The position numbers were made by a program, and so were the translations under genes. Shown piece by piece: positions 4,164-26,990 of a DNA stretch of 26,990 nt. Source of the stretch: a virus (Duplodnaviria > Caudoviricetes); the IMG/VR virus record IMGVR_UViG_3300037751_000077, positions 1-26,990 of that record; one strand, written 5' to 3'. The notes under the pieces were generated by a model, which was given only the letters and a program-made list of their open reading frames with translations, searched no databases and was not told the origin of the DNA. The first letter of the stretch is position 1; each line of letters opens with the position of its first letter.

Positions 4164-4936
4164 TGCGTAAAACAAGCGCTATAAGAGAACCCCGAAAAGT
4201 AGAGATACAATATCGCAAAGCACTACTTGTCCGCGTGGAGTGGCTAAAAGAACATCAAGCGCAGATAATCAAAGAGCTCAAAAAGAATGAGGGTAGATAT
4301 CAAGGAGACGCGCCTGCCGATGATCTACGCGCTACTATCAATAAACGAAAAGAGTTATACAGCGCTAGATTTACGCACAAGATGTCGACCAACTTAGCAA
4401 AAACATTCTATAAGAGAATAGACTCCTATAATTCTAAAAAGATAGGTAGTGCTCTTGAGGCGCTTGGCATCGATTTAGAATATATTTTAAAAAGAGAAAA
4501 CCTAAAAGATTTTGTGGGGACAGCAATACAAAATCAGGTGGACCTAATAACCTCAATCGGCAGTGAGCATTTTGACAAAATAGAGAAGATTGTCTATAAT
4601 GGAATGATGGAAGGCGAGGACTTCGCATCTCTTGGGAAAAAGATAGAAGAGGCAACAGGGGCCAGCGCAAAGCGTGCTAAGATGATAGCAAGAGATCAGA
4701 CTACAACGATAAACACTATGCTATCAAAGAAGAGAGCCGAGGCGGCGGGGATAACTAAGGGGGAGTGGGTGAAGCCCAAGTTTGTTAAGACTAAAAACTA
4801 CACTCCTCGCAAAAGTCACATTGCAGCAAATGGGAAGGTATTCCCACTCGATAAAGGGCTTTTGGTGGATGGCGAGTATCAGTTCCCTGGGCAGGCCATT
4901 AACTGCACCTGCTCATTTGCTTTTGTGGTGGATTAG
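4163..4936 (+). CDS. Head morphogenesis protein (Mu gpF / SPP1 gp7-like)
   Basis: RAKMIARDQT, RKSH...NGKVF and PGQAINCTC motifs; start at ATG 4163 (TAATG coupling). Confidence 0.9.
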   Translation: MRKTSAIREPRKVEIQYRKALLVRVEWLKEHQAQIIKELKKNEGRYQGDAPADDLRATINKRKELYSARFTHKMSTNLAKTFYKRIDSYNSKKIGSALEALGIDLEYILKRENLKDFVGTAIQNQVDLITSIGSEHFDKIEKIVYNGMMEGEDFASLGKKIEEATGASAKRAKMIARDQTTTINTMLSKKRAEAAGITKGEWVKPKFVKTKNYTPRKSHIAANGKVFPLDKGLLVDGEYQFPGQAINCTCSFAFVVD

Positions 4937-5135
4937 AGTCAACATATTTTATCCAAACAAATGCTGAATTAATAGCCTCTATCTCATCTTCATAAACAAA
5001 GGTATGAATTATATCTTCATACCCAAAATGTCCTACCTCACAAGACCCATTATTTTCATCAATAAAACTTCGCATCCAATACCCTAATTTTTCAGCTTCT
5101 TTTTTTTGTTCAAAAGCTTTTTCGTATTTGTTCAT
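4899..5135 (-). CDS. Hypothetical protein (accessory island 1)
   Basis: 78 aa; AAGGA RBS and ATGA overlap with the upstream gene; 3' end overlaps MuF convergently by 38 nt. Confidence 0.65.
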   Translation of the reverse strand: MNKYEKAFEQKKEAEKLGYWMRSFIDENNGSCEVGHFGYEDIIHTFVYEDEIEAINSAFVWIKYVDSNPPQKQMSRCS

Positions 5136-5356
5136 CTTCCATCCTTTCGATCAATATGCTCACCAATCTCAATAAATATATGCGCCAATACTCCTACAAA
5201 AAAACCACCGACTACCATAGCCAACACTGCTCTAAGCGCATCAAAAGTTGGAATATAAGAGTTTGCAATAAATGCCATTAGCCATATAAGCAAAAACCCA
5301 ATAATAACAACACCGGATACAGAACCGCCAAATATTAAAATAGTTTTTATATTCAT
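5132..5356 (-). CDS. Small two-TM membrane protein (accessory island 1)
   Basis: Two hydrophobic stretches (VSGVVIIGFLLIWLMAFIA; AVLAMVVGGFFVGVLAHIFI); start ATG 5356 after AAGGATTGGAG. Confidence 0.75.
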   Translation of the reverse strand: MNIKTILIFGGSVSGVVIIGFLLIWLMAFIANSYIPTFDALRAVLAMVVGGFFVGVLAHIFIEIGEHIDRKDGR

Positions 5357-5547
5357 CTCCAATCCTTTTTTAATTCTTTTTCTTTTATGATTTTAAGCAC
5401 CTCTTCTAAAATCTCTATTGCCTCGAGCTTAGAAAAAGTATTTTCAAATACGAGCTTTGCATCTCCTCCAATACTATAATTAAGGCTTGCACTATCGCTA
5501 GACATTGAAAACTTATTATCGCCCCACGAAAACATTATGTCTTTCAT
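5353..5547 (-). CDS. Hypothetical protein (accessory island 1)
   Basis: 64 aa; AAGGATGGAAGATG start context; ATGA overlaps at both ends. Confidence 0.7.
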   Translation of the reverse strand: MKDIMFSWGDNKFSMSSDSASLNYSIGGDAKLVFENTFSKLEAIEILEEVLKIIKEKELKKDWR

Positions 5548-5702
5548 CTTCCATCCTTCTTTAAAAGTCTCTCACTTTTTTTAAAATCAATGTACATATC
5601 CAAAGCATTATCAACGATGGCTTTCAATGTTCTACCATCTACTGCTTTCTCAAACTCCAACTTCTTAAACACATGGTCGCTTATATATACCGGTTTACTC
5701 AT
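5544..5702 (-). CDS. Putative ribbon-helix-helix DNA-binding protein
   Basis: MSKPVYISDHVFKKLEFEKAVDGRTLKAIVDNALDMYI fits a strand-helix-Gly-helix RHH pattern; start ATG 5702 after AAGGA. Confidence 0.65.
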   Translation of the reverse strand: MSKPVYISDHVFKKLEFEKAVDGRTLKAIVDNALDMYIDFKKSERLLKKDGR

Positions 5703-5728
5703 CGAATATCCTTGAATCAATATCAATA

Positions 5729-5737
5729 ATTATAACA
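5729..5737 (-). promoter_or_regulatory. Extended -10 promoter of the reverse-strand island
   Basis: TGTTATAAT on the minus strand with AT-rich upstream DNA, about 27 nt before the ATG at 5702. Confidence 0.7.
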
Positions 5738-11865: not shown

Positions 11866-12183
11866 ATGACAAATACAGAGATAGAGACCATATTAGCAAT
11901 AGAACTTTTTAAAAAAGAAATATATTTTAATATTGGGTTTCTAAGTGATGAAAACAATTTGAAGAACTTATTAAAATATAATGAAAAAGGGATTAATGAT
12001 AAGTTATCTAAAGAATTTTTTGAATATAGAGAAATTTTACAAAAAACAGTAGACTCTAATTATCTTGGATATTATGAGGTTAATTCGTTTGAGCCTATTC
12101 TAATGAATAATTTTAAATATTCTATTCAAAGAAATTTAGAAACTTTAAACGCAATGAAAAAATTGATTAAATTTGTTGAATAA
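11866..12183 (+). CDS. Hypothetical AT-rich moron protein
   Basis: 105 aa; AAGGATAGAAG RBS; visibly more AT-rich than the flanking tail genes. Confidence 0.7.
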   Translation: MTNTEIETILAIELFKKEIYFNIGFLSDENNLKNLLKYNEKGINDKLSKEFFEYREILQKTVDSNYLGYYEVNSFEPILMNNFKYSIQRNLETLNAMKKLIKFVE

Positions 12184-12188
12184 AATAG

Positions 12189-12332
12189 ATGAAACCAACT
12201 AAAACAGCATTAGCTAAACACATAGGCATAACCCCGCAAGGTTTAAATAAAATGAAAAACGATCACCCTAAAAAGTTTGAATTGCTTTGGTTGGGTTGGG
12301 TTGAGTATTTAAAACAAAGCGATGTGTTATAA
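12189..12332 (+). CDS. Tiny HTH DNA-binding protein, 47 aa (not in the ORF track)
   Basis: MKPTKTALAKHIGITPQGLNKMKNDHPKKFELLWLGWVEYLKQSDVL; Cro-like HTH pattern LAKHIGITPQGL. Confidence 0.7.
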   Translation: MKPTKTALAKHIGITPQGLNKMKNDHPKKFELLWLGWVEYLKQSDVL

Positions 12333-12333
12333 T
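12325..12333 (+). promoter_or_regulatory. Extended -10 promoter
   Basis: TGTTATAAT about 27 nt upstream of ATG 12360. Confidence 0.6.
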
Positions 12334-12359
12334 ACAAAATAAACAAAAAGGATAAAAAG

Positions 12360-12605
12360 ATGGAAAAGACAATAAAATATATTAGAGAGCCGTTTAGTCG
12401 GAATATTTATAAATTAGAAGTAGAAAGTGAGCATACCGACGCAGATGGGAAAGTCATGTTTTTAGGAAGAATAGATGGGAGGATAGTTCTTATGCCTTCC
12501 AATAGTGTAGCCTCAGAGGAAGAATTTAGAAAATTTACAAAATTACAAAAACTTTTATGTCTTGAGAAAAAAATAAGAGATAAAATAAAAGAGATAGGGT
12601 ATTAA
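12360..12605 (+). CDS. Hypothetical moron protein
   Basis: 81 aa; AAGGA RBS; own promoter. Confidence 0.7.
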   Translation: MEKTIKYIREPFSRNIYKLEVESEHTDADGKVMFLGRIDGRIVLMPSNSVASEEEFRKFTKLQKLLCLEKKIRDKIKEIGY

Positions 12606-16514: not shown

Positions 16515-17104
16515 ATTATGACGGTTTAGAGCGACTTATAGATGGCAAATTAAACGACTTAAAAAAGATGATGGAGACTTCCACATACGGAGAGATAAGC
16601 GCCTTAAACGAGAATAGCGTTGATGTGTACTTGCCTCAAAGAGACGCAACTCTTCCAGACGTGCCCGTGTTCACACTACAGGGGTCGGGCGAATATTTAC
16701 AGTTCCCGCTTAAAGTAGGAGATAAGATTTTGTTATGTTTCACGAAAGACAGTGCGTTAGACTGGATAAGTGGCAATGCAATATCTAGTGAGTTTAATTT
16801 TGGTTTAGAGAATGCGTTTGCATTAGTCGGCTTAGACACGCTAGCAAAGCCCCTTAAGCTCACAAACATTACCACACTGAAGGTCACTAAGCTAAAGATA
16901 CACAACGACACAGCAGAGCTAATAACTACCTTATCTGATCTATTACAACAGCTTATAGATACTGCCGCGGCGTTGCAAGTTTTGACAGTAACAACTGTGA
17001 ATATAGGCCAGCCTACAACCGTTCCCAACAATGCCGCTGATTTTGCTATAATAGAGGCTGAACTTTCAAGTTTAAAATCTGACATAGATAGCTTTAAGGA
17101 GTAG
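16511..17104 (+). CDS. Baseplate central spike (gp138/gpV-like, N-terminal OB fold)
   Basis: LPDVPV...LQFPLKVGDKILLCF...W motif. Confidence 0.8.
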   Translation: MNYDGLERLIDGKLNDLKKMMETSTYGEISALNENSVDVYLPQRDATLPDVPVFTLQGSGEYLQFPLKVGDKILLCFTKDSALDWISGNAISSEFNFGLENAFALVGLDTLAKPLKLTNITTLKVTKLKIHNDTAELITTLSDLLQQLIDTAAALQVLTVTTVNIGQPTTVPNNAADFAIIEAELSSLKSDIDSFKE

Positions 17105-19208: not shown

Positions 19209-21314
19209 ATGGCCAACCCAGAACTCGGCAAGTTTGACATAAATGACACAAATACAATACCAATACCAGCCTCTTTAACGAGCGATGGATATTTAACGGG
19301 CCAAACCCCAACAGCTTCTGAGCATAATGAACTTTTTAAACAGCTCTTTGCCGCAGCAAATAAGACCAAAAATGACGGTACATGGGAATGGGAAGACCCT
19401 GCAACTAACGATACTGAATACAACACAGGATCTATAGTTTCTGTTGGGGGTGTTCCATTTATTAGCAAAACAGATAATAATACGGAAACTCCAAGCGCAA
19501 CAAGTATTGATTGGCAGTCCGATATAGCCACGGTAAATAGCGTAGAAGACTTGGCAACAATCCCAAATGGGTATCAGTCTGCAATAGTAAAAGACTTAGA
19601 CAGAGGCGGAACTTTCATCTGGAGCGCCACTAGTACTGCTAACGGGGGTACTGTATTTGCAGGTGTTAGCGGGTACTGGGTTCGACAGCATATAGGAATA
19701 GTTGATGTAAAATGGTTTGGAGCGAAGGGTGATTTAGCAACAGATGATACTGTAGCTATTCAAAACGCAATTAATGCAATGACATTAGATGCAGGTAAGA
19801 CCATTTATTTTCAAGCAGGAATATATAAAGTTTCTTCAACGATACATATACCTTCCACCAAGCAAGGTCTAACGATCAAAGGTGAGGGGCAAGTAAGAAC
19901 TATGATATATAGAGCAACTGATTATGGGGATACGTTTGTATTCGGTGAGATAGGGGCAGCTTCTATAGAGTCAACTATAGTGGAAGGCATATTCTTTAAT
20001 CATGATTACGGCGGCTATGAAAACGGGCAACTCCCAAGCACTATGATAAATAAGCCCACCGCTGGTTCTCATTTTAAGTTATGGAATCCAGTGAGGCTTA
20101 TAGTTAGAAATTGCATGCTGTGGAATATGCCTCGAAATATGGAATTTAACGGCGGTTCAAAATGCGTAGTCCAGAATTGTTCATTTAGAGGTTCTTTTGA
20201 CCATGCGGAATCGCAACTCCAGGTCACATCAGAAAGCATATTATTACAGCAGGCATTACCCGCACAGGCATCTGCCCTCCCAACTGATATACAAATAATT
20301 GGGAATGACTTCGGAGGATATTTATCCCCACTCAGGTCTGTAACTTATGGAACATTTACAGGAAGTATTTCTGAAAATGTAGGTCCTTCAGCCGGGGTTA
20401 GAATAAAAGCTGCAGAAGTAATAACAATTTCAGGCGGCACAGTAGGCGGGCATAATAATGCAGGTATCTCAGTAGAGCCCCAAGACGGAGTTGGGTGTTT
20501 ATCTGTATTCATAAGAGGAATATTTTTTGATGGGAATAGACTGGCAGGGGTAAGAGCAAATAATAATGGCGGCACTCAATCATGCCCTAACCTTGAGATT
20601 CAAGACAATATATTTATAGGTCAAGAGAATTCCGACACTGCAGTATATATTGGGAGCTCTTCCGCAGACGCTGTGTCAAGCGTGGTCGGAGGTATTATTA
20701 GCGGTAATTCTTTTAGTACATATGTTAAATCAATGATAGTTATGCAAAAAGCCACTGGGGTAAAAGTAGCATGCAATATTATTAAAGATTGGAATACTAG
20801 GGCAGGATTTAATGCAGATATTGCTAACGCATCAGGAGTCTATTTAGTTAATACAGACAATGTTCAAATTGAAAATAATAAGATAGGAGGGGGGTTTGGT
20901 TTTGAGGCTTACACGGGGACAACTATGAATGCTTCTTACTACGGGATTACGATAGATATATTAACTATTAAACATGCAATATTAAATAATGACATTAGAA
21001 AAGACATGGTATTTACTCCGATTATAGATGCTAGCACATCTGCATCAACATCCTCTAAGAGACTTATAAATAATATTGGGTTTAATGAAGATAGGCCAGC
21101 AGAAATCCCAACATTCCCAGCTTCTGGGGATGACTACTATAACCATCTTGGATCACCTGCTTTTGTTACCATTGATGGTGGTACAGTAACACAGATAGTA
21201 TTGAACGGGCAACCCATACTAACAAGCACTCCTTTTCAAATTCCACTTGGGCCCGGGGATAGAATATCCATTGTTTACACTGTAGCCCCTAGCTGGGTTT
21301 GGTTCCCACAATAA
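19209..21314 (+). CDS. Tail fibre / tailspike with parallel beta-helix (putative polysaccharide depolymerase)
   Basis: N-terminal baseplate anchor, then VDVKWFGAKGDLATDDTVAIQNAIN...IYFQAGIYKVS (pectate lyase-3-like entry) and repeated N/G-rich strands. Confidence 0.85.
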   Translation: MANPELGKFDINDTNTIPIPASLTSDGYLTGQTPTASEHNELFKQLFAAANKTKNDGTWEWEDPATNDTEYNTGSIVSVGGVPFISKTDNNTETPSATSIDWQSDIATVNSVEDLATIPNGYQSAIVKDLDRGGTFIWSATSTANGGTVFAGVSGYWVRQHIGIVDVKWFGAKGDLATDDTVAIQNAINAMTLDAGKTIYFQAGIYKVSSTIHIPSTKQGLTIKGEGQVRTMIYRATDYGDTFVFGEIGAASIESTIVEGIFFNHDYGGYENGQLPSTMINKPTAGSHFKLWNPVRLIVRNCMLWNMPRNMEFNGGSKCVVQNCSFRGSFDHAESQLQVTSESILLQQALPAQASALPTDIQIIGNDFGGYLSPLRSVTYGTFTGSISENVGPSAGVRIKAAEVITISGGTVGGHNNAGISVEPQDGVGCLSVFIRGIFFDGNRLAGVRANNNGGTQSCPNLEIQDNIFIGQENSDTAVYIGSSSADAVSSVVGGIISGNSFSTYVKSMIVMQKATGVKVACNIIKDWNTRAGFNADIANASGVYLVNTDNVQIENNKIGGGFGFEAYTGTTMNASYYGITIDILTIKHAILNNDIRKDMVFTPIIDASTSASTSSKRLINNIGFNEDRPAEIPTFPASGDDYYNHLGSPAFVTIDGGTVTQIVLNGQPILTSTPFQIPLGPGDRISIVYTVAPSWVWFPQ

Positions 21315-21442
21315 AAAAGCTATATTGTGCCATTGGTTTGTAATAACTAAAAAGATGATAGATAGACTGCAACACATAAGTTAATTTGCTATAAAATAGT
21401 AATTATAGTAAAATATTATAAATCAGTTCAAGGGTTAAGTGC

Positions 21443-21769
21443 ATGGTAGATATAGAGCCAAGGGTTACAAAGCTAGAAAGCGATCACAACCTGTTGGCAT
21501 TCGAATTCCAAACCATAAACAAAACGCTTTCAAAAATTGAAGAAGCTATTGAGAAACAAAACGAGATCTCGTCAGATGTCCGCTCACTTAGACAAGAGCT
21601 TCAGTATCATACTTCATCATCAGCGCTCAGATCAGATAAAATAGAAGCCTCAATATCAGGCGGGATACCCCCTTCATTGTTAAAAACTCTTATATTTGTC
21701 ATGGTAGGTGTAGCTTCATCTTATGCAGTTTATAATGAAGTCCGCGTCACAGACATAAAAACAGTATAA
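21443..21769 (+). CDS. Coiled-coil plus one-TM lysis-region protein (holin/antiholin-like), apparently truncated by an in-frame TAA
   Basis: RVTKLE coiled coil, TM LIFVMVGVASSYAVY; frame stays open after TAA 21767 until TGA 21859. Confidence 0.6.
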   Translation: MVDIEPRVTKLESDHNLLAFEFQTINKTLSKIEEAIEKQNEISSDVRSLRQELQYHTSSSALRSDKIEASISGGIPPSLLKTLIFVMVGVASSYAVYNEVRVTDIKTV

Positions 21770-21855
21770 TCAAACATATCTTTAATTCAGCATCAACAGT
21801 CGATGCAGATAGAAAAAAGTGACAATCAGATATCTTATCTAAAGGGCCGTGTAAA

Positions 21856-22041
21856 ATGAAAAAATGGTACAAAAGTAAGACACACTGGTTTAATATCGGC
21901 ATAGGAATTATCGGCGCGCTTGAGCTAAACCTACACCTTTTGCAAGATGCCCTTGGAAACACTTATGGAGGCATCTTCATAGTCGTATCTATTATCGGGG
22001 TACTTCTCAGAAACGCAACTACACAGGCGGTGGAGAAATGA
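21856..22041 (+). CDS. Holin (two TM)
   Basis: MKKWYKSKTHWFN..., two hydrophobic segments, LRNATTQAV tail; in lysis cassette. Confidence 0.75.
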   Translation: MKKWYKSKTHWFNIGIGIIGALELNLHLLQDALGNTYGGIFIVVSIIGVLLRNATTQAVEK

Positions 22042-22391
22042 TTAACTTTCAATTGGCGATAATTTTAGCCGTGTCACTACTGGTCGCTTCGGTCTGCTAT
22101 AACTACGACCGCAAAGTAAGAAGTCTAACCTCGGAACTCGTAGAAAACCGAGAAAAACTTATAGACTGCAAAGGGAACGCGCTAAATTTAAAAGGCGCAG
22201 TGCTCGAGCAAAACAAAGCAATCGAGCTAGTTTCTAACGACTACATCACGAAAGTCGAAGAACTGGAAAAATGGAGAGCAAGACCGCGTGAAGTTCTCTA
22301 CAAAGAAGTTATAAAGATAGAGGAGGCCAAATCGGATGATTGCAAAGATATTAAAATACTTCTTGATGATATCCGCGCTGCTGGCTTTTAG
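22038..22391 (+). CDS. Inner-membrane spanin (Rz-like)
   Basis: N-terminal TM, coiled coil, C-terminal Cys; overlaps a lipoprotein gene. Confidence 0.75.
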   Translation: MINFQLAIILAVSLLVASVCYNYDRKVRSLTSELVENREKLIDCKGNALNLKGAVLEQNKAIELVSNDYITKVEELEKWRARPREVLYKEVIKIEEAKSDDCKDIKILLDDIRAAGF

Positions 22392-22569
22392 CGGATGCGT
22401 AGAAAAGCGCATAGAGTATAGAGACGTCCCTTTAGAGGTGCTAGTACCCGTTAAGTGCGTTACTCCTGCCACGGTATGCGACAGCAACCAATCGAGTTAC
22501 ACAGAGCTTGTTGTAGAGCTTAGACTGTGCATCGCCCGACTTAGAAAAGCTGAAGAGGTGTGTAAATGA
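22336..22569 (+). CDS. Outer-membrane lipoprotein spanin (Rz1-like)
   Basis: Signal peptide with lipobox AFSG-C, VPVKC motif; AGGAGG RBS at 22321-22326. Confidence 0.8.
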   Translation: MIAKILKYFLMISALLAFSGCVEKRIEYRDVPLEVLVPVKCVTPATVCDSNQSSYTELVVELRLCIARLRKAEEVCK

Positions 22570-22934
22570 TAGACTGGACAAAATTAAAGAACTTTACTAA
22601 AGCAGAGTTTGACTGCAAGCACACAGGTAAAAACGAAATGCAAGAAGCATTTATGCAAAAGCTCCAAGCAATGCGTACCGAATACGGAAAGAGCATGAGC
22701 ATCACCAGCGGGTATCGAGACCCTTCGCACCCGGTCGAAGCAAAGAAGGCAAAAGCGGGGCATCACTCAGAGGGCATGGCCTGCGATATAGCGTGTAATT
22801 CTGTCGAAGCCTATCCAATCATAAGACTAGCTATCAAGCACGGCTTCACGGGCATAGGTGTAAACATGAAGGGCAACTCTAGGTTTATCCACTTAGACAC
22901 TCGGCCGGGTGCAGGCATAGTTTACAGCTACTAA
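22566..22934 (+). CDS. Endolysin, peptidase M15A-like Zn peptidase
   Basis: FTKAEFDCK, ITSGYR, HSEGMACD and FIHLDTR motifs. Confidence 0.9.
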   Translation: MIDWTKLKNFTKAEFDCKHTGKNEMQEAFMQKLQAMRTEYGKSMSITSGYRDPSHPVEAKKAKAGHHSEGMACDIACNSVEAYPIIRLAIKHGFTGIGVNMKGNSRFIHLDTRPGAGIVYSY

Positions 22935-22945
22935 TTATAAACTTA

Positions 22946-22954
22946 TGCTATAAT
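22946..22954 (+). promoter_or_regulatory. Extended -10 promoter of a putative sRNA
   Basis: TGCTATAAT with no RBS or ORF downstream before a strong hairpin. Confidence 0.65.
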
Positions 22955-22960
22955 ACCACC

Positions 22961-23035
22961 AGCCCACTTGGGCGATCACTCTTTTCCTCCTTAAACTCCT
23001 TTTGCGGTCAGGCTTCATCTCCCTGACCAAATTTT
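22961..23035 (+). ncRNA. Putative ~75-nt small RNA with anti-Shine-Dalgarno motifs
   Basis: 5' hairpin GCCC-ACTT-GGGC, CU-rich linker with CCTCCTT and ACTCCTTTT, 3' hairpin GGTCAGG/CCTGACC. Confidence 0.55.
23006..23035 (+). terminator. Terminator-like hairpin ending the late region or sRNA
   Basis: GGTCAGG-CTTCATCTC-CCTGACC followed by AAATTTT (imperfect U-tract). Confidence 0.55.
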
Positions 23036-23049
23036 AAAACATACTTATA

Positions 23050-23084
23050 TTTTAATAAACTCTTAAGCAATATATACTTACAAT
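23050..23084 (+). promoter_or_regulatory. Putative promoter of the early/recombination operon
   Basis: TTTTAA-N7-TTAAGC...TACAAT, same spacing as 11802-11836; 5' hairpin CAGAGCA/TGCTTTG at 23093-23110. Confidence 0.55.
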
Positions 23085-23131
23085 TACCATAACAGAGCAT
23101 TTTTGCTTTGAGATATTTAAAAGGAGTAACA

Positions 23132-23284
23132 TTGTCAAAGACAAAAACAAACTTGTTTAACAAAACAGTTTATTTCAGCGAGGCCGACCGAAAAGAAGTA
23201 ATGGCCGCGTGGGAAGATTACAAAAAGAAAAATGGTGAGATTAGTTTCTCAAAATTCTTGGTCATTAAGGCCACCATAAAATAA
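23132..23284 (+). CDS. Putative RHH-like DNA-binding protein, 50 aa (not in the ORF track)
   Basis: AAGGAG RBS, TTG start; MSKTKTNLFNKTVYFSEADRKEVMAAWEDYKKKNGEISFSKFLVIKATIK. Confidence 0.6.
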   Translation: MSKTKTNLFNKTVYFSEADRKEVMAAWEDYKKKNGEISFSKFLVIKATIK

Positions 23285-23294
23285 GGGAGATAGG

Positions 23295-23498
23295 ATGGGC
23301 AGAGTAGATGCAGATTTAAATACATACTATAAGCGAATAGACAACCAAGATGCGGCGTATGAAAACTTTATTGCTTCAATAGAGGGTGAAATGGATGAGG
23401 TGTTTGATATTTTAAATAGTATCAAAACGCGATCTAAAAACGTGGACGGCTACGACTTTAGCGAACTTATCTTACAATACATCGAGGACTCACTATGA
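23295..23498 (+). CDS. Hypothetical acidic protein
   Basis: AAGGGAG RBS; ATGA overlap with the next gene. Confidence 0.7.
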   Translation: MGRVDADLNTYYKRIDNQDAAYENFIASIEGEMDEVFDILNSIKTRSKNVDGYDFSELILQYIEDSL

Positions 23499-23767
23499 AT
23501 TTAAGAGAGTTTAAAGATGCAGAAGATGATATGAACGATAAGCTACGAAGATTTTGCAGGCACAAGGGCTATATGCTTTGCTGCCAGTCTCAATATAGTA
23601 GTATTTATGTGAGCGTATACACAACGCCCGGGAACGATTCAACACTCAAAGTAGACGAGGGTACAGGCTTCCATATCTCTTTGGAAAACAAGCATGTAGA
23701 CCGCTACGAAGAAGTGCTCGAGTTTTTAAAGACAATCACGCTAGGAGAAAATGATGAAGCTATCTGA
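23495..23767 (+). CDS. Hypothetical protein
   Basis: GAGGA RBS; translationally coupled. Confidence 0.7.
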   Translation: MNLREFKDAEDDMNDKLRRFCRHKGYMLCCQSQYSSIYVSVYTTPGNDSTLKVDEGTGFHISLENKHVDRYEEVLEFLKTITLGENDEAI

Positions 23768-23999
23768 ATTTCTAAAAGAGCATCATGCTTATGATAAGTT
23801 TGTGAATAACTTTAGTGCGGATCCTGATTTCAACTGCTACGGTGGAGATGTAGATATAGACAATGCGTTTAACTGGAAGGACTCGCAAGAAGGACATATA
23901 TTTTGGATGGAGCTGGAAGATATCTTATATGACCAATATAATAATATTGAATATGATATGAACTTTTTACTAGAGGAGAAACAAAATGAAAAACATTAA
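23751..23999 (+). CDS. Hypothetical protein
   Basis: AGGAG RBS; AFNWKDSQEGHIFW aromatic motif. Confidence 0.7.
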   Translation: MMKLSEFLKEHHAYDKFVNNFSADPDFNCYGGDVDIDNAFNWKDSQEGHIFWMELEDILYDQYNNIEYDMNFLLEEKQNEKH

Positions 24000-24078
24000 A
24001 TTCATGCAGATGGTGCTAAGACATCATCCAAAATGCACAGTCGCAGAGTTCGCAACACTGTTAAAGTTCAGGGGCTAA
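23986..24078 (+). CDS. 30-aa peptide (not in the ORF track)
   Basis: GAGGAG at 23973-23978 then ATG; MKNIKFMQMVLRHHPKCTVAEFATLLKFRG. Confidence 0.55.
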   Translation: MKNIKFMQMVLRHHPKCTVAEFATLLKFRG

Positions 24079-24079
24079 G

Positions 24080-24196
24080 ATGGCATTAGTAGTTACGGCA
24101 GTCACGGTTTATCTAGTCGGCATTATTTTGCTATATAAAAAGTCACAACGACGCTGGGGTGAAAACTCAGGAACTAAAAACAAATACGAGGGGTGA
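24080..24196 (+). CDS. 38-aa single-TM peptide (not in the ORF track)
   Basis: AGGGG RBS; MALVVTAVTVYLVGIILLYKKSQRRWGENSGTKNKYEG; fills the gap before the next gene. Confidence 0.55.
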   Translation: MALVVTAVTVYLVGIILLYKKSQRRWGENSGTKNKYEG

Positions 24197-24200
24197 AGAG

Positions 24201-25106
24201 ATGAAAAAAGTTATAGAAGCGGAAATAGTAGAGATCGATATCTCAAAAGCGGTAGAAGTAAAGCAAAAGCCGATCATTGTTTATGAAATGCTGCAGTCAA
24301 TCAGCAAGGGCGTTGAAGAGAAGATAGCGTCACTAGATATCCAATCGCTACAAGCAACCGAAGACAACCTTTCTCTCATTAAGAGAACACGAGCTGATCT
24401 AACAAAAGACTTTAACGATCTGGAAAATCAGCGTAAGATGGTTAAAGAAATAATTATGAAAGATTACAATATCTTCGAGGATGACTATAAAAAGCTTATT
24501 TCATCGCTGTTTAAGGGCGCAGATGAACAGTTAAAAAGCCTTGCATCAGTAGTAGGTGATAGAATTTTATCTGCAAAGATTGACGGCATAAAAGAGTATT
24601 TTAATGAAGTCAATGATTACGAGTTTGTGGCATTCGACAATCTCGGCTTAAAAATCATAAAGTCAAAATCAGATAAATCTATAAAAGCTGAAATTGACGA
24701 GTATCTCGATACTATAAGCATGAGCCTAACAACAATCGAAACGCTTCAAAACAAAGAGCGAGTACTTGCAAAGTTCCAGATGAGCCGTGATCTTAATCGT
24801 GCAATATCGGAAACAAATATCGAAGTGCAACGCGAGGAGCAGATCAAAGCACAAAACGAAGAGCGGGCAAGACTGGAAATAGAACGCAAAGAACGTCAAG
24901 CAGAAGCACAGCAGCAACGCAACGAAGCTATTGAAGTAGAAGCAATGGAAACTGTGTCAGATTTTATCCCTGAGCCAGTGCGTGAACCGCAACCGATTGC
25001 TGAAGGGGAGATGGTTTATAAATGCACATTTTCAGTATACGCAACAAAAGCCCAGCTAAAACAATGCAAAGAGTTTTTTGCACAAATAGGAGTAAAGTAT
25101 GAGTAA
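24201..25106 (+). CDS. DUF1351-like coiled-coil protein
   Basis: TEDNLSLIKRTRADLTK...ENQRKMVK pattern; ends FFAQIGVKYE; GAGGGG RBS before ATG 24201; upstream of Bet. Confidence 0.75.
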   Translation: MKKVIEAEIVEIDISKAVEVKQKPIIVYEMLQSISKGVEEKIASLDIQSLQATEDNLSLIKRTRADLTKDFNDLENQRKMVKEIIMKDYNIFEDDYKKLISSLFKGADEQLKSLASVVGDRILSAKIDGIKEYFNEVNDYEFVAFDNLGLKIIKSKSDKSIKAEIDEYLDTISMSLTTIETLQNKERVLAKFQMSRDLNRAISETNIEVQREEQIKAQNEERARLEIERKERQAEAQQQRNEAIEVEAMETVSDFIPEPVREPQPIAEGEMVYKCTFSVYATKAQLKQCKEFFAQIGVKYE

Positions 25107-25809
25107 CGAGACACAACAAGAGAAGATGCTAGTATCGTACAAGATCGACGATACGGAAATCAAGCTCACGCCAAAGATAGTGCAGGATTACATTGTTAGC
25201 GGTAACGCTCAAATCACTCTGCCAGAGTTCAAGATGTTTACCGAACTGTGCAAGGTGCGAAAGCTTAACCCGTTCTTGAAAGAAGCATATCTAATCAAGT
25301 TCGGTTCACAGCCTGCGCAGATGGTTGTAGGAAAAGATGCAATTCTAAAGCGCGCTATCACAAATAAATCTTTTGACGGCAGAGAGCAGGGCATTATCGT
25401 ATTGCGTGCGGATGGAGCAATTGAGGAGCGCAACGGAACTTTTAAAATGAAAGATGAAGCACTTGTAGGCGGATGGGCTAAAGTATACCGCAAAGATTGG
25501 GGTCACCCTGTGTATATTACTGTCTCGTTCGATGAGGTAGCGCAAAAGGAAAATGACGGTATGCTTAACTCAAATTGGGCTACTAAAGGGGCAACGATGG
25601 TCGAGAAAGTAGCACTAATGCGTGGTCTACGTGAAGCTTTTGTGGAGGACTTGGGAGGCATGATCGATGAGGACGAGGCTTGGGATACTAAGCAAGATGT
25701 GCGACAATCAGACAAGCCTAAAATAATTCAGAAAGATACATTTGATGATGCGGAAGTGGTCAACGAAAATACAACGAATGTGACCTCGGTTAACTTAGAT
25801 GACATTTAA
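25099..25809 (+). CDS. bet: ssDNA-annealing recombinase (Bet/RecT family)
   Basis: LCKVRKLNPFLKEAYLIKFG, GGWAKVYRKD and MVEKVALMRGLREAF motifs. Confidence 0.9.
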   Translation: MSNETQQEKMLVSYKIDDTEIKLTPKIVQDYIVSGNAQITLPEFKMFTELCKVRKLNPFLKEAYLIKFGSQPAQMVVGKDAILKRAITNKSFDGREQGIIVLRADGAIEERNGTFKMKDEALVGGWAKVYRKDWGHPVYITVSFDEVAQKENDGMLNSNWATKGATMVEKVALMRGLREAFVEDLGGMIDEDEAWDTKQDVRQSDKPKIIQKDTFDDAEVVNENTTNVTSVNLDDI

Positions 25810-25843
25810 AACCATTCAGCATAGCAGATATTTAAACAATATT

Positions 25844-25852
25844 TGCTATAAT
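25844..25852 (+). promoter_or_regulatory. Extended -10 promoter of the HNH-AP2 cassette
   Basis: TGCTATAAT. Confidence 0.7.
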
Positions 25853-25856
25853 GCCA

Positions 25857-25934
25857 GTGTAGAAAGTTTTGCTGAGGTCGGTGCTACACCCTCCAAGGCT
25901 TGCCGACTTCATCAAAATTTTATGCCTTGGAGGG
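25857..25934 (+). promoter_or_regulatory. Structured RNA leader able to sequester the RBS
   Basis: Long stem 25863-25883/25901-25921; 11-bp CCCTCCAAGGC/GCCTTGGAGGG covering the GGAGG RBS; GTGTAG/CTACAC. Confidence 0.75.
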
Positions 25935-25939
25935 CCTCA

Positions 25940-26590
25940 ATGTTAAACAATCAAGAATTTAAAGTACCAGTATTAATAGAAGATTTGGGGATGTTATACC
26001 CTACTAAAAAATCTAATTACAAAAAAAGACATGGGATATACTTATGTGCGTGTGGTAAAGAATTTAAATGTGATACAAGTCACATCAATAGTGGACACAC
26101 TAAAACATGTGGATGCTCTAAGAATATGCACGGATTGACCAATCATGTATTATCAAGCACGTGGTATTCAATGATAGAAAGATGTAACAACAAAAATAGC
26201 AAATCATATAAATTATATGGGGCTAAAGGCGTGGCCGTATGCGAAGAATGGATGAATATAGAAAACTTTATAAAAGACATGTCCCTCTCTTATAAAAAAT
26301 GTCTTTCATTAGACAGAATTAATCCATATGGAAACTATGAAAAACATAATTGCAGATGGGCTAGTCAAACAATTCAAAATAGAAACACTAGATTGATACA
26401 AAGGAATAACACTACTGGTTTCAGGGGTGTTGGTAAATTTAAGGAAAAATTTAGAGCTTATATTTCCATAAATTACAAACAAATTCATTTAGGATATTTT
26501 TCAACTGCAATTGATGCCGCAAAAGCATACGACACTTACGTCATTGCAAATAACTTAGAGCATACGATTAACGGTGTACTAAATGATTAA
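25940..26590 (+). CDS. HNH-type endonuclease with C-terminal AP2 DNA-binding domain
   Basis: CACG and TCGC Zn-like motifs, WYSMIERC, SLDRINPYGNYEKHNCRWA...QNRN, then NTTGFRGV...HLGYFSTAIDAAKAYD (AP2); GGAGG RBS before ATG 25940. Confidence 0.85.
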   Translation: MLNNQEFKVPVLIEDLGMLYPTKKSNYKKRHGIYLCACGKEFKCDTSHINSGHTKTCGCSKNMHGLTNHVLSSTWYSMIERCNNKNSKSYKLYGAKGVAVCEEWMNIENFIKDMSLSYKKCLSLDRINPYGNYEKHNCRWASQTIQNRNTRLIQRNNTTGFRGVGKFKEKFRAYISINYKQIHLGYFSTAIDAAKAYDTYVIANNLEHTINGVLND

Positions 26591-26990
26591 TATAATTCAG
26601 ACTGGGTCTAGTGGGAACGCTATTATTTTTGATAGGTGTATTATGATAGATGCGGGAATAACACTTAAAACGCTCAAAGATGCAATAAATATAAGCGATA
26701 TAAAAGTGGTACTAATGACACATATTCATTCGGATCATTTTAAATCAGCCTTGATTCGTTCTTTATTTGCGCAAACAGATTGTATTTTTTATGTAGGTGA
26801 ATTTTTAGTAAAAGAAATTAAAAAAGTGGGGGTAGAGGATGATAGGATTATAATTTGTGAGGCGGGTAATATTTACAAGTTCGGTGATTATAATTTTTGC
26901 CCAGTAATTCTATTCCATGATGTTCCTAATTTTGGATGGAGGATAAAAAAAGGCAATTATTTACACTTCCATGCTACCGATACCTTCACG
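26583..26990 (+). CDS. Metallo-beta-lactamase-fold hydrolase (probable nuclease), 3'-truncated by the window (not in the ORF track)
   Basis: MINIIQTGSSGNA...IDAG...THIHSDH...HDVPN...ATDT; HxHxDH motif. Confidence 0.9.
   Translation, partial: MINIIQTGSSGNAIIFDRCIMIDAGITLKTLKDAINISDIKVVLMTHIHSDHFKSALIRSLFAQTDCIFYVGEFLVKEIKKVGVEDDRIIICEAGNIYKFGDYNFCPVILFHDVPNFGWRIKKGNYLHFHATDTFT

Follow-up and report, generated by a model that had tools for sequence, protein, structure and literature searches.

What is encoded in the 197-base gap that separates the endolysin stop (22934) from the TTG (23132) with which the early operon begins in the genome of an uncultured sediment phage? The stretch of DNA analyzed here (the window) is a 26,990-base virus fragment that carries terminase, major head, DUF3383 sheath-like, baseplate J, endolysin, DUF1351, RecT-like, and HNH genes. 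The endolysin (peptidase M15; 22566..22934, + strand; PHROG 894, E 1e-31; Pfam PF08291) is the last gene of the lysis module and forms the upstream boundary of the unit examined below. The first-pass annotation of the gap proposed a small RNA that mimics the 3' tail of 16S rRNA and blocks ribosome-binding sites (RBSs) broadly. Our analysis bears out part of that proposal: the motifs are present, while the absence of an open reading frame (ORF), the 16S likeness, and the weight placed on three 9-mer matches do not stand as claimed. We consider the unit real and non-random, and its identity as a phage small RNA (sRNA) is credible but unproven. It is more likely to be a small RNA that would damp non-structural genes of the phage itself than a mimic of the ribosome acting to shut off the host. 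Elsewhere in the window, the structural operon is broken up by two low-GC islands of small unknown genes (4899-5737, - strand; 11866-12605, + strand). The one on the minus strand carries a TGTTATAAT box of its own, and relatives of its first gene occupy the same position in two related phage records (G001 and G002).

The unit is preceded by a perfect extended -10 box, TGCTATAAT (22946..22954, + strand), for which the predicted start site lies near 22961. The box and the two-hairpin unit behind it were found with every motif at the coordinates first reported, including both hairpins and the linker between them. The predicted small RNA (22961..23030, + strand; ~70 nt, both ends predicted) begins with a 5' hairpin, GCCC-ACUU-GGGC (22962..22973), present in both the minimum free energy (MFE) and the centroid structures. 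The linker (22974-23005) contains a stretch that is unpaired in the predicted fold (22974..22993), composed of an anti-start motif, GAUCAC, and a first anti-Shine-Dalgarno (anti-SD) motif (CCUCCUUA, 22986-22993), whose spacing is the complement of an RBS, 6 nt, and GUG. A second anti-SD motif (ACUCCUUUUG, 22995..23004) is complementary to the RBS of the next gene. The predicted 3' hairpin (23006..23028) has a 7-bp stem, GGTCAGG/CCTGACC, and a loop, CUUCAUCUC, that includes an anti-AUG. The plus strand of the unit has neither an RBS nor an ATG, GTG, or TTG ORF, in agreement with the first-pass annotation; the minus strand contradicts it, because a perfect RBS, TAAGGAGG, is followed after 6 nt by GTG and an ORF of 14 codons (22979-22935; whole feature, 22935..22993, - strand) that adjoins the endolysin stop. 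A longer in-frame start is also present for this antisense micro-ORF.

Over a 76-nt stretch, the two hairpins and the open linker are both the MFE and the centroid fold (-18.5 kcal/mol; z = -3.11), and only 1 of 200 shuffled sequences was equally stable. The 3' hairpin is followed by AAATTTT, which makes a poor terminator tail without a U-tract, and it was absent from the five terminator-like sites called in the 20000-26990 region. The promoter scan of the same region did not call the box at 22946 because it requires a -35 hexamer. With +1 set at 22961, T occurs at -7, -17, and -38, and an A, not a T, occurs at -27. The plus strand of the window holds seven copies of TGnTATAAT, five of which precede short leaders with an RBS. 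AAGGAGG is found once on the two strands of the window, on the minus strand of the linker, and the unit is the one place among the 12 strands of six compared phage records that has a pair of CTCCTT motifs within 30 nt. Dinucleotide shuffles of the 197-nt intergenic region yielded two CTCCTT motifs in 19 of 5,000 cases and TGnTATAAT in 32 of 5,000, and shuffles of the 70-nt unit yielded two CTCCTT motifs in 75 of 5,000. On the basis of this motif excess and of the fold compared with shuffles, the unit is more than chance. The spacer behind it (23036-23110) is AT rich, with short inverted repeats and a TACAAT box, and resembles the spacer before gene 11866; it is a possible operator and promoter of the early operon.

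The host of this phage is probably a member of the Campylobacterota, a sequence-based assignment at the phylum level that follows from the RecT loci, the promoter boxes, and the RBS type. Among 30 RecT loci in bacterial genomes, the best two are in metagenome-assembled genomes titled Epsilonproteobacteria and Campylobacteraceae (70% and 73%). The TGnTATAAT boxes, including that of the unit, and the AAGGA sites of the phage match the gnTAnaAT sigma70 box and the aAGGa RBS of the Campylobacter and Helicobacter group (PMC3847290). A search by tail sheath detected no related prophage in genome contigs or in 401 Campylobacterota genomes.

If the RNA acts in trans, its targets should be apparent among the translation starts of the window. 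The three 9-mer matches put forward originally were all recovered: ACTCCTTTT (22995-23003) is complementary to AAAAGGAGT (23119-23127), the RBS of the next gene; CTCCTTAAA is complementary to 17093-17101; and TTCATCTCC in the 3' loop is complementary to GGAGATGAA at 5352-5360, at a minus-strand gene. Their positions are correct, and taken alone they are weak (3 of 47 starts versus a shuffle mean of 0.57; reached by 30 of 1,000 shuffles). The 3' loop complements GAGAUGAA at the starts 5356 and 24201. Perfect complements of at least 8 nt provided a stronger signal, found at 7 of 16 non-structural starts (5356, 11866, 12360, 23132, 23295, 23751, and 24201) versus 1 of 31 structural starts (17107) (Fisher p = 0.001), with the word length of 8 having been picked after seeing the data, the gene classes assigned by hand, and the record being a fragment. 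Seven non-structural matches were reached by 1 of 3,000 shuffles. Among 10,768 70-nt windows of the genome, seven others reach this number; they belong to one locus, and each also has five or six structural matches. When gene starts were taken from one automatic caller, matches were present at 7 of 14 non-structural and 2 of 28 structural starts of the phage itself; for the former, the comparison with host-type starts (47 of 374) gave p = 0.001.

Several observations temper this enrichment. It is weaker at 7 nt (26 of 3,000 shuffles; 123 of 10,768 windows) and absent at word lengths 6 and 9. Two of the seven non-structural matches lie wholly in the first codons and three involve stem bases; when restricted to unpaired bases, the counts are 5 of 16 non-structural versus 1 of 31 structural starts (40 of 3,000 shuffles). 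Relative G001, in which no copy of the unit was found, has matches at 9 of 41 non-structural and 1 of 22 structural starts (difference from the phage, p = 0.05), and since it shows the same tilt without the unit, part of the signal reflects this family's style of early gene starts. The more distant relative G410 has 2 of 49 and 0 of 17, respectively. The lowest-energy duplex of the linker among gene starts forms with the start region of the second early gene (ATG 23295; 23270..23312, + strand) at -22.5 kcal/mol. This candidate for a specific long duplex was rejected, as 38 of 300 linker shuffles reached the same energy; 48 of 300 reached that of the duplex with the 23132 start (-13.2 kcal/mol). 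The strongest linker duplex in the genome falls inside the coding region of the minor head gene.

The available comparative data on the unit come from sequencing-run contigs only. G001 has most structural genes in common with the phage at ~50 to 80% identity, and at the place of the unit a minus-strand operon converges on its endolysin; no such unit was found in G001 or in G410, which is complete. A second variant in run X1 has 54 changes in 490 lysis-gene bases and five in 22907-22958, and one 176-nt piece spans 22959-23134 with no variant listed. This invariance is weak evidence, since a 145-nt piece within the endolysin is likewise identical in X1, which may be the sample that the window itself came from. 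Of the five changes, the four in 22907-22931 are silent in the endolysin; the fifth (22958) is located between the box and the start site and converts Trp8 of the micro-ORF to Arg. In run X4, 22940-22980 is retained, with two differences, on one contig (depth 2.3) after 110 letters of unrelated sequence; the retained piece thus starts 6 nt upstream of the box and does not include the micro-ORF stop. These very thin data fit selection on the plus-strand unit better than selection on a peptide. No RNA run is among the 10 listed.

No homologue with both hairpins was obtained in any of the searches, whose collection scans may omit records that lie very close to the window, and thus there is no covariation to weigh. 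The Infernal/Rfam comparison suggested in the first-pass annotation assigned no family: the Rfam 15 covariance models gave no hits in the window at the gathering threshold (best E, 3 to 5.7). INPHARED yielded 15 short matches and 1 more in a second search, without a true homologue, and PLSDB yielded 66 records, for which the 20 matches listed are all in the AT-rich spacer that follows the unit. IMG/VR patterns returned 0 matches, 1 unrelated match, 12 without the linker or shared proteins, and 0; a JGI metagenome pattern returned 22, none with the hairpins or shared proteins. No homologue of the unit was present at 67 endolysin, 17 RecT, and 2 capsid loci or in records G001-G005, G009, and G410-G414. 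The single-sequence model R1 found itself alone in 35 sources (next E, 3), its covariance search of 151 genomes gave one match (E 0.03) that proved unlike the unit on inspection, and blastn against 401 Campylobacterota genomes gave no full-length match; the unit therefore showed no homology to a chromosomal Campylobacterota sRNA in these two genome sets.

A loose pattern search of the 401 genomes hit 28 places in 23 genomes, and two of them led to an sRNA candidate with twin CCUCCU motifs that is present in 23 of 30 genomes of a Campylobacterota family (that of genome G054). This host unit (L258:1501-1575, + strand; L259:1546-1470, - strand; L261-L283) comprises a -10 box; a near-invariant, unpaired core with two CCTCC anti-SD motifs; and a GC-rich 3' hairpin with a variable stem and a T-rich tail. 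Thirteen copies were aligned and 10 more were identified by model score. All 13 aligned copies are downstream of the same gene, which we take to be pseudouridine-synthase-like and which is paired with a tatB-like gene. Two loci scanned against Rfam gave no match, and a literature search under presumed genus names listed no report of it. Homology with the phage unit was rejected: the phage unit was not among the eight window matches of the model made from the 13 host copies (E up to 10), and the two have only CCTCCTTAAA in common. The host unit is best regarded as an analogue, which would show that an anti-SD design is used in this phylum. A second, weaker copy occurs in genome G040, and in three related genomes (L239-L241) a promoter-like box and twin CTCCTT motifs lie just upstream of a match to Rfam HPnc0580.

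Five explanations of the unit were weighed. The one we favor, tentatively and at slightly below even confidence, is a stand-alone sRNA gene of ~70 nt, read by sigma70, that blocks the early and accessory translation starts of its own probable Campylobacterota phage; the sequence, the motif excess, and the complementarity counts behind it are direct observations, and the fold and the pairing are predictions. The original proposal, a copy of the 16S tail that blocks host translation broadly and spares the phage's late genes, draws on the twin anti-SD motifs in an open linker and on the structural starts being matched least. However, the best local alignment of the unit with the 16S tail was equalled by 198 of 3,000 shuffles and by 421 of 3,000 that retained both CTCCTT motifs, and the tail at five of five loci in three Campylobacterota genomes ends in GATCACCTCCTTTC, not CCTTA. 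Since shuffles match the alignment, the linker reads as the complement of a translation start (RBS-spacer-GTG) and not as a tail copy. Host-type starts were drawn from 400 kb of sequence in three genomes of the host phylum, again with a single automatic caller; 47 of 374 carry a perfect complement of at least 8 nt, about twice the shuffle level (11 to 13% versus 5 to 7%), with significance in one of the three genomes (1, 30, and 32 of 300 shuffles). The other 327 starts have no 8-nt complement, and mean duplex energies are within ~1 kcal/mol of those of shuffled linkers, so a broad host shut-off is unsupported. Nor does the suggested distinction between AAGGAG and AAGGAT sites separate the matches, because the AAGGAT genes 5356, 11866, and 12360 are among them. 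With the host assigned to the phylum level only, and with C. jejuni described as having no Hfq or ProQ homologues that could aid short seeds (10.1101/2021.03.19.434396), we consider this reading highly improbable. A functionless unit, in which an early-operon promoter, an ordinary hairpin that ends the lysis transcript, and a pyrimidine spacer left by a lost minus-strand gene start happen to adjoin, would account for the empty homologue searches and for the absence of the unit from G001, with its convergent minus-strand operon, and from G410. The joint excess of box, fold, and twin anti-SD motifs, the selective complementarity to non-structural starts, and the lack of listed variants over the unit in X1 speak against it, and we hold it to be quite improbable.

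The unit might alternatively act in cis only, as part of a 170-nt 5' untranslated region (UTR) driven by the box, in which anti-SD 2 hides the RBS of the first early gene and no free RNA acts elsewhere. That gene (RBS 23119-23127, TTG 23132, 50 aa; 23119..23284, + strand) belongs to no PHROG or Pfam family; its earlier label as a putative ribbon-helix-helix (RHH) regulator survives as a lead only, through an RHH-like fold (Atlas rank 10 cluster, RHH_1 at 0.89), and it has one 88% relative. The weak terminator tail favors a leader, as does the predicted 22961-23140 RNA, in which anti-SD 2 and the RBS form a helix of about 9 to 10 bp with a probability of 0.97 and the RBS is unpaired with a probability of 0.002, below all 200 linker shuffles; a value below 0.05 was also seen in 39 of the 200. 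Without the unit, the corresponding values are 0.82 (23091-23140 RNA) and 0.30 (23085-23160 RNA). A long leader also follows the TGCTATAAT box at 25844, and there too an anti-SD is paired to the next RBS. Yet the helix drops to 0.05 when the RNA is extended to 23310, with the linker pairing to the start of the next gene instead, and a possible second, non-extended -10 box for the early operon, TACAAT (23079..23084, + strand; by eye), stands between the unit and the gene; it resembles the box before gene 11866 and is absent from the promoter-scan calls. A cis leader also leaves anti-SD 1, the anti-GUG, the anti-AUG loop, and the matches on six other non-structural starts unexplained, and we judge it unlikely as the whole account. 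More doubtful still is that the unit is the antisense RNA of the minus-strand micro-gene, the two forming a type I toxin-antitoxin pair, still live or decayed, arranged like aapA/IsoA or aapB/IsoB, with the anti-SD look of the unit being the mere complement of the micro-gene's RBS and start. The RBS is perfect and lies 6 nt before GTG, the plus-strand -10 box is inside the ORF, and the RNA overlies the leader and first codons, a layout like that of IsoA1 (PMC5416894); NikS, similarly, is located across from a small ORF with poor expression, in a pair that is probably degenerate (PMC8322730). By eye, 5 of 20 host loci inspected have nearly the same string as the reverse of an apparent RBS and GTG start, and these five Campylobacterota loci share the RBS-spacer-GTG-ATC complement at the apparent gene start. 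Against a micro-gene, the ORF has 14 codons versus 30 for AapA1, the minus strand upstream has two bare TAAAAT and no extended -10 box, no room for a 3' UTR exists outside the endolysin, the phage's own genes never use an AAGGAGG RBS, and of the variants described above, X1 changes Trp8 while its four endolysin changes are silent and X4 interrupts the ORF before its stop. An origin from a decayed micro-gene is compatible with the small-RNA explanation. The GGA-rich minus strand was also considered as a CsrA sponge, a reading dropped because that strand has no extended -10 box.

The favored small RNA has counterparts among characterized systems. The csRNAs of the Streptococcus CiaRH regulon have two stem-loops, are 51 to 202 nt long, are in some cases located on mobile DNA, and are likened to the unit by an unpaired middle complementary to SD sequences and AUG, GUG, or UUG starts (PMC3091779). 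The motifs of the unit and its predicted fold agree with this architecture. However, it is phage-encoded, lacks the CiaR-dependent promoter context, matches no Rfam family, carries its anti-AUG in the 3' loop downstream of the anti-SD motifs, and is from another phylum, the nearest RecT loci being those of the Campylobacterota and not of streptococci. NikS (HPnc4160, IsoB) of Helicobacter pylori is a Campylobacterota sRNA that is antisense to a small ORF, aapB, and that represses several mRNAs in trans through leader pairing without Hfq or ProQ; it differs in being chromosomal, controlled by NikR and a T-tract, and directed to virulence-gene targets (PMC8322730, PMC8035401). CJnc190 of Campylobacter jejuni and RepG of H. 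pylori mask a G-rich RBS or leader with a C/U-rich single-stranded seed, but that seed is in a loop and addresses one G-rich target (10.1101/2021.03.19.434396, PMC8322730), while the unit's open linker holds seeds that mirror the SD sequence. CJnc190 is additionally cut from a precursor by RNase III (10.1101/2021.03.19.434396).

Redundant anti-SD motifs and Hfq-independent RBS occlusion with 8-nt seeds are also known from NfeR1/alpha-r14 (cuckoo) RNAs (PMC10746234; see also PMC4615179), which differ in having three hairpins, each with CCUCCUCCC in its loop, and in residing on alphaproteobacterial chromosomes. The unit carries CCUCCUUA and ACUCCUUUU in its open linker and has no CCUCCUCCC loops. 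The c4 antisense RNA of phages P1 and P7 lies just upstream of its targets. It is a short phage RNA that blocks its own phage's genes near the RBS, but it does so with specific loop sequences, not generic anti-SD motifs (PMC12197685), and the unit had no Rfam match to c4 at any threshold tried. In the aapA/IsoA type I modules, the antisense promoter is in the small ORF and a two-stem-loop RNA covers the RBS and start (PMC5416894). The unit has the same arrangement of -10 box, RNA, RBS, and start; it has no ~30-aa peptide, no gnTAnAAT upstream of the micro-ORF, and no clear toxin promoter or 3' UTR, and the ORF is not kept in two variants, including Trp8Arg. By these comparisons, the unit appears to work like RNAs of the csRNA, NikS, and NfeR1 type and belongs to no known family by test. 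The accessible text of the literature on phage sRNAs and SD/start pairing, which included a 2025 review and few subscription papers, describes no phage RNA of this generic design and no RNA from a Campylobacterota phage. Within the phylum, NikS, CJnc190, and the host twin-CCUCCU unit (23 of 30 genomes) represent the same design.

According to the small-RNA explanation, host sigma70 would read an RNA of ~70 nt from the extended -10 box, and the 5' and 3' hairpins would protect the open linker and loop. By pairing over the start codons and SD sequences of early and accessory mRNAs, the linker and loop may then keep the 30S subunit from loading; transcription, host group, timing, and repression are what we infer here. 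In transcripts that run past the 3' hairpin, given its poor U-tract, anti-SD 2 would fold onto the RBS of the next gene and silence that gene in cis, a lock absent from the first-pass annotation. Of the sRNA interpretation first offered, the notion of a promoter-driven, CU-rich RNA that pairs with starts is the reading we prefer, the tail mimic and the broad shut-off are not supported, and the accompanying idea of an early-to-late switch gains support from the 7 of 16 versus 1 of 31 matches. A more ambitious form of this idea, which we view as unlikely, is an RNA-only translation switch of an environmental Campylobacterota phage, in which a chaperone-free, generic start complement (anti-SD twice, anti-GUG, and anti-AUG) works both in cis and in trans to turn off all early and accessory genes and structural starts avoid pairing. 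The same -10 box precedes tail genes in this phage and in G001, which hints at possible co-expression of the unit with structural genes, but the box is also the plain host consensus. If real, an RNA of 70 nt would set the timing of the phage's expression programme with no need for Hfq or ProQ; the RNA and all of its predicted targets lie in the window, which makes the claim inexpensive to check in vitro.

Similar boxes were seen at other places. In the window, the listed HNH ORF contains a second TGCTATAAT box, behind which lies a structured leader (25844-25942, + strand; -28.3 kcal/mol over 80 nt). Its CCCTCCAAGGC can pair with GCCTTGGAGGG, covering the RBS of what is likely the true start (25940); by eye, an alternative hairpin encloses the anti-SD, making a switch or pseudoknot possible. 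The HNH genes of relatives G001 (L096:5195-5290, + strand), G002 (L097:4662-4570, - strand), and G003 (L098:1084-990, - strand) each have their own extended -10 box, and their leaders share a common motif that opens a short upstream ORF. Two more TGCTATAAT boxes in G001 (L095:13198-13380 and L096:557-720, both + strand) are followed by non-coding sequence that contains strong inverted repeats.
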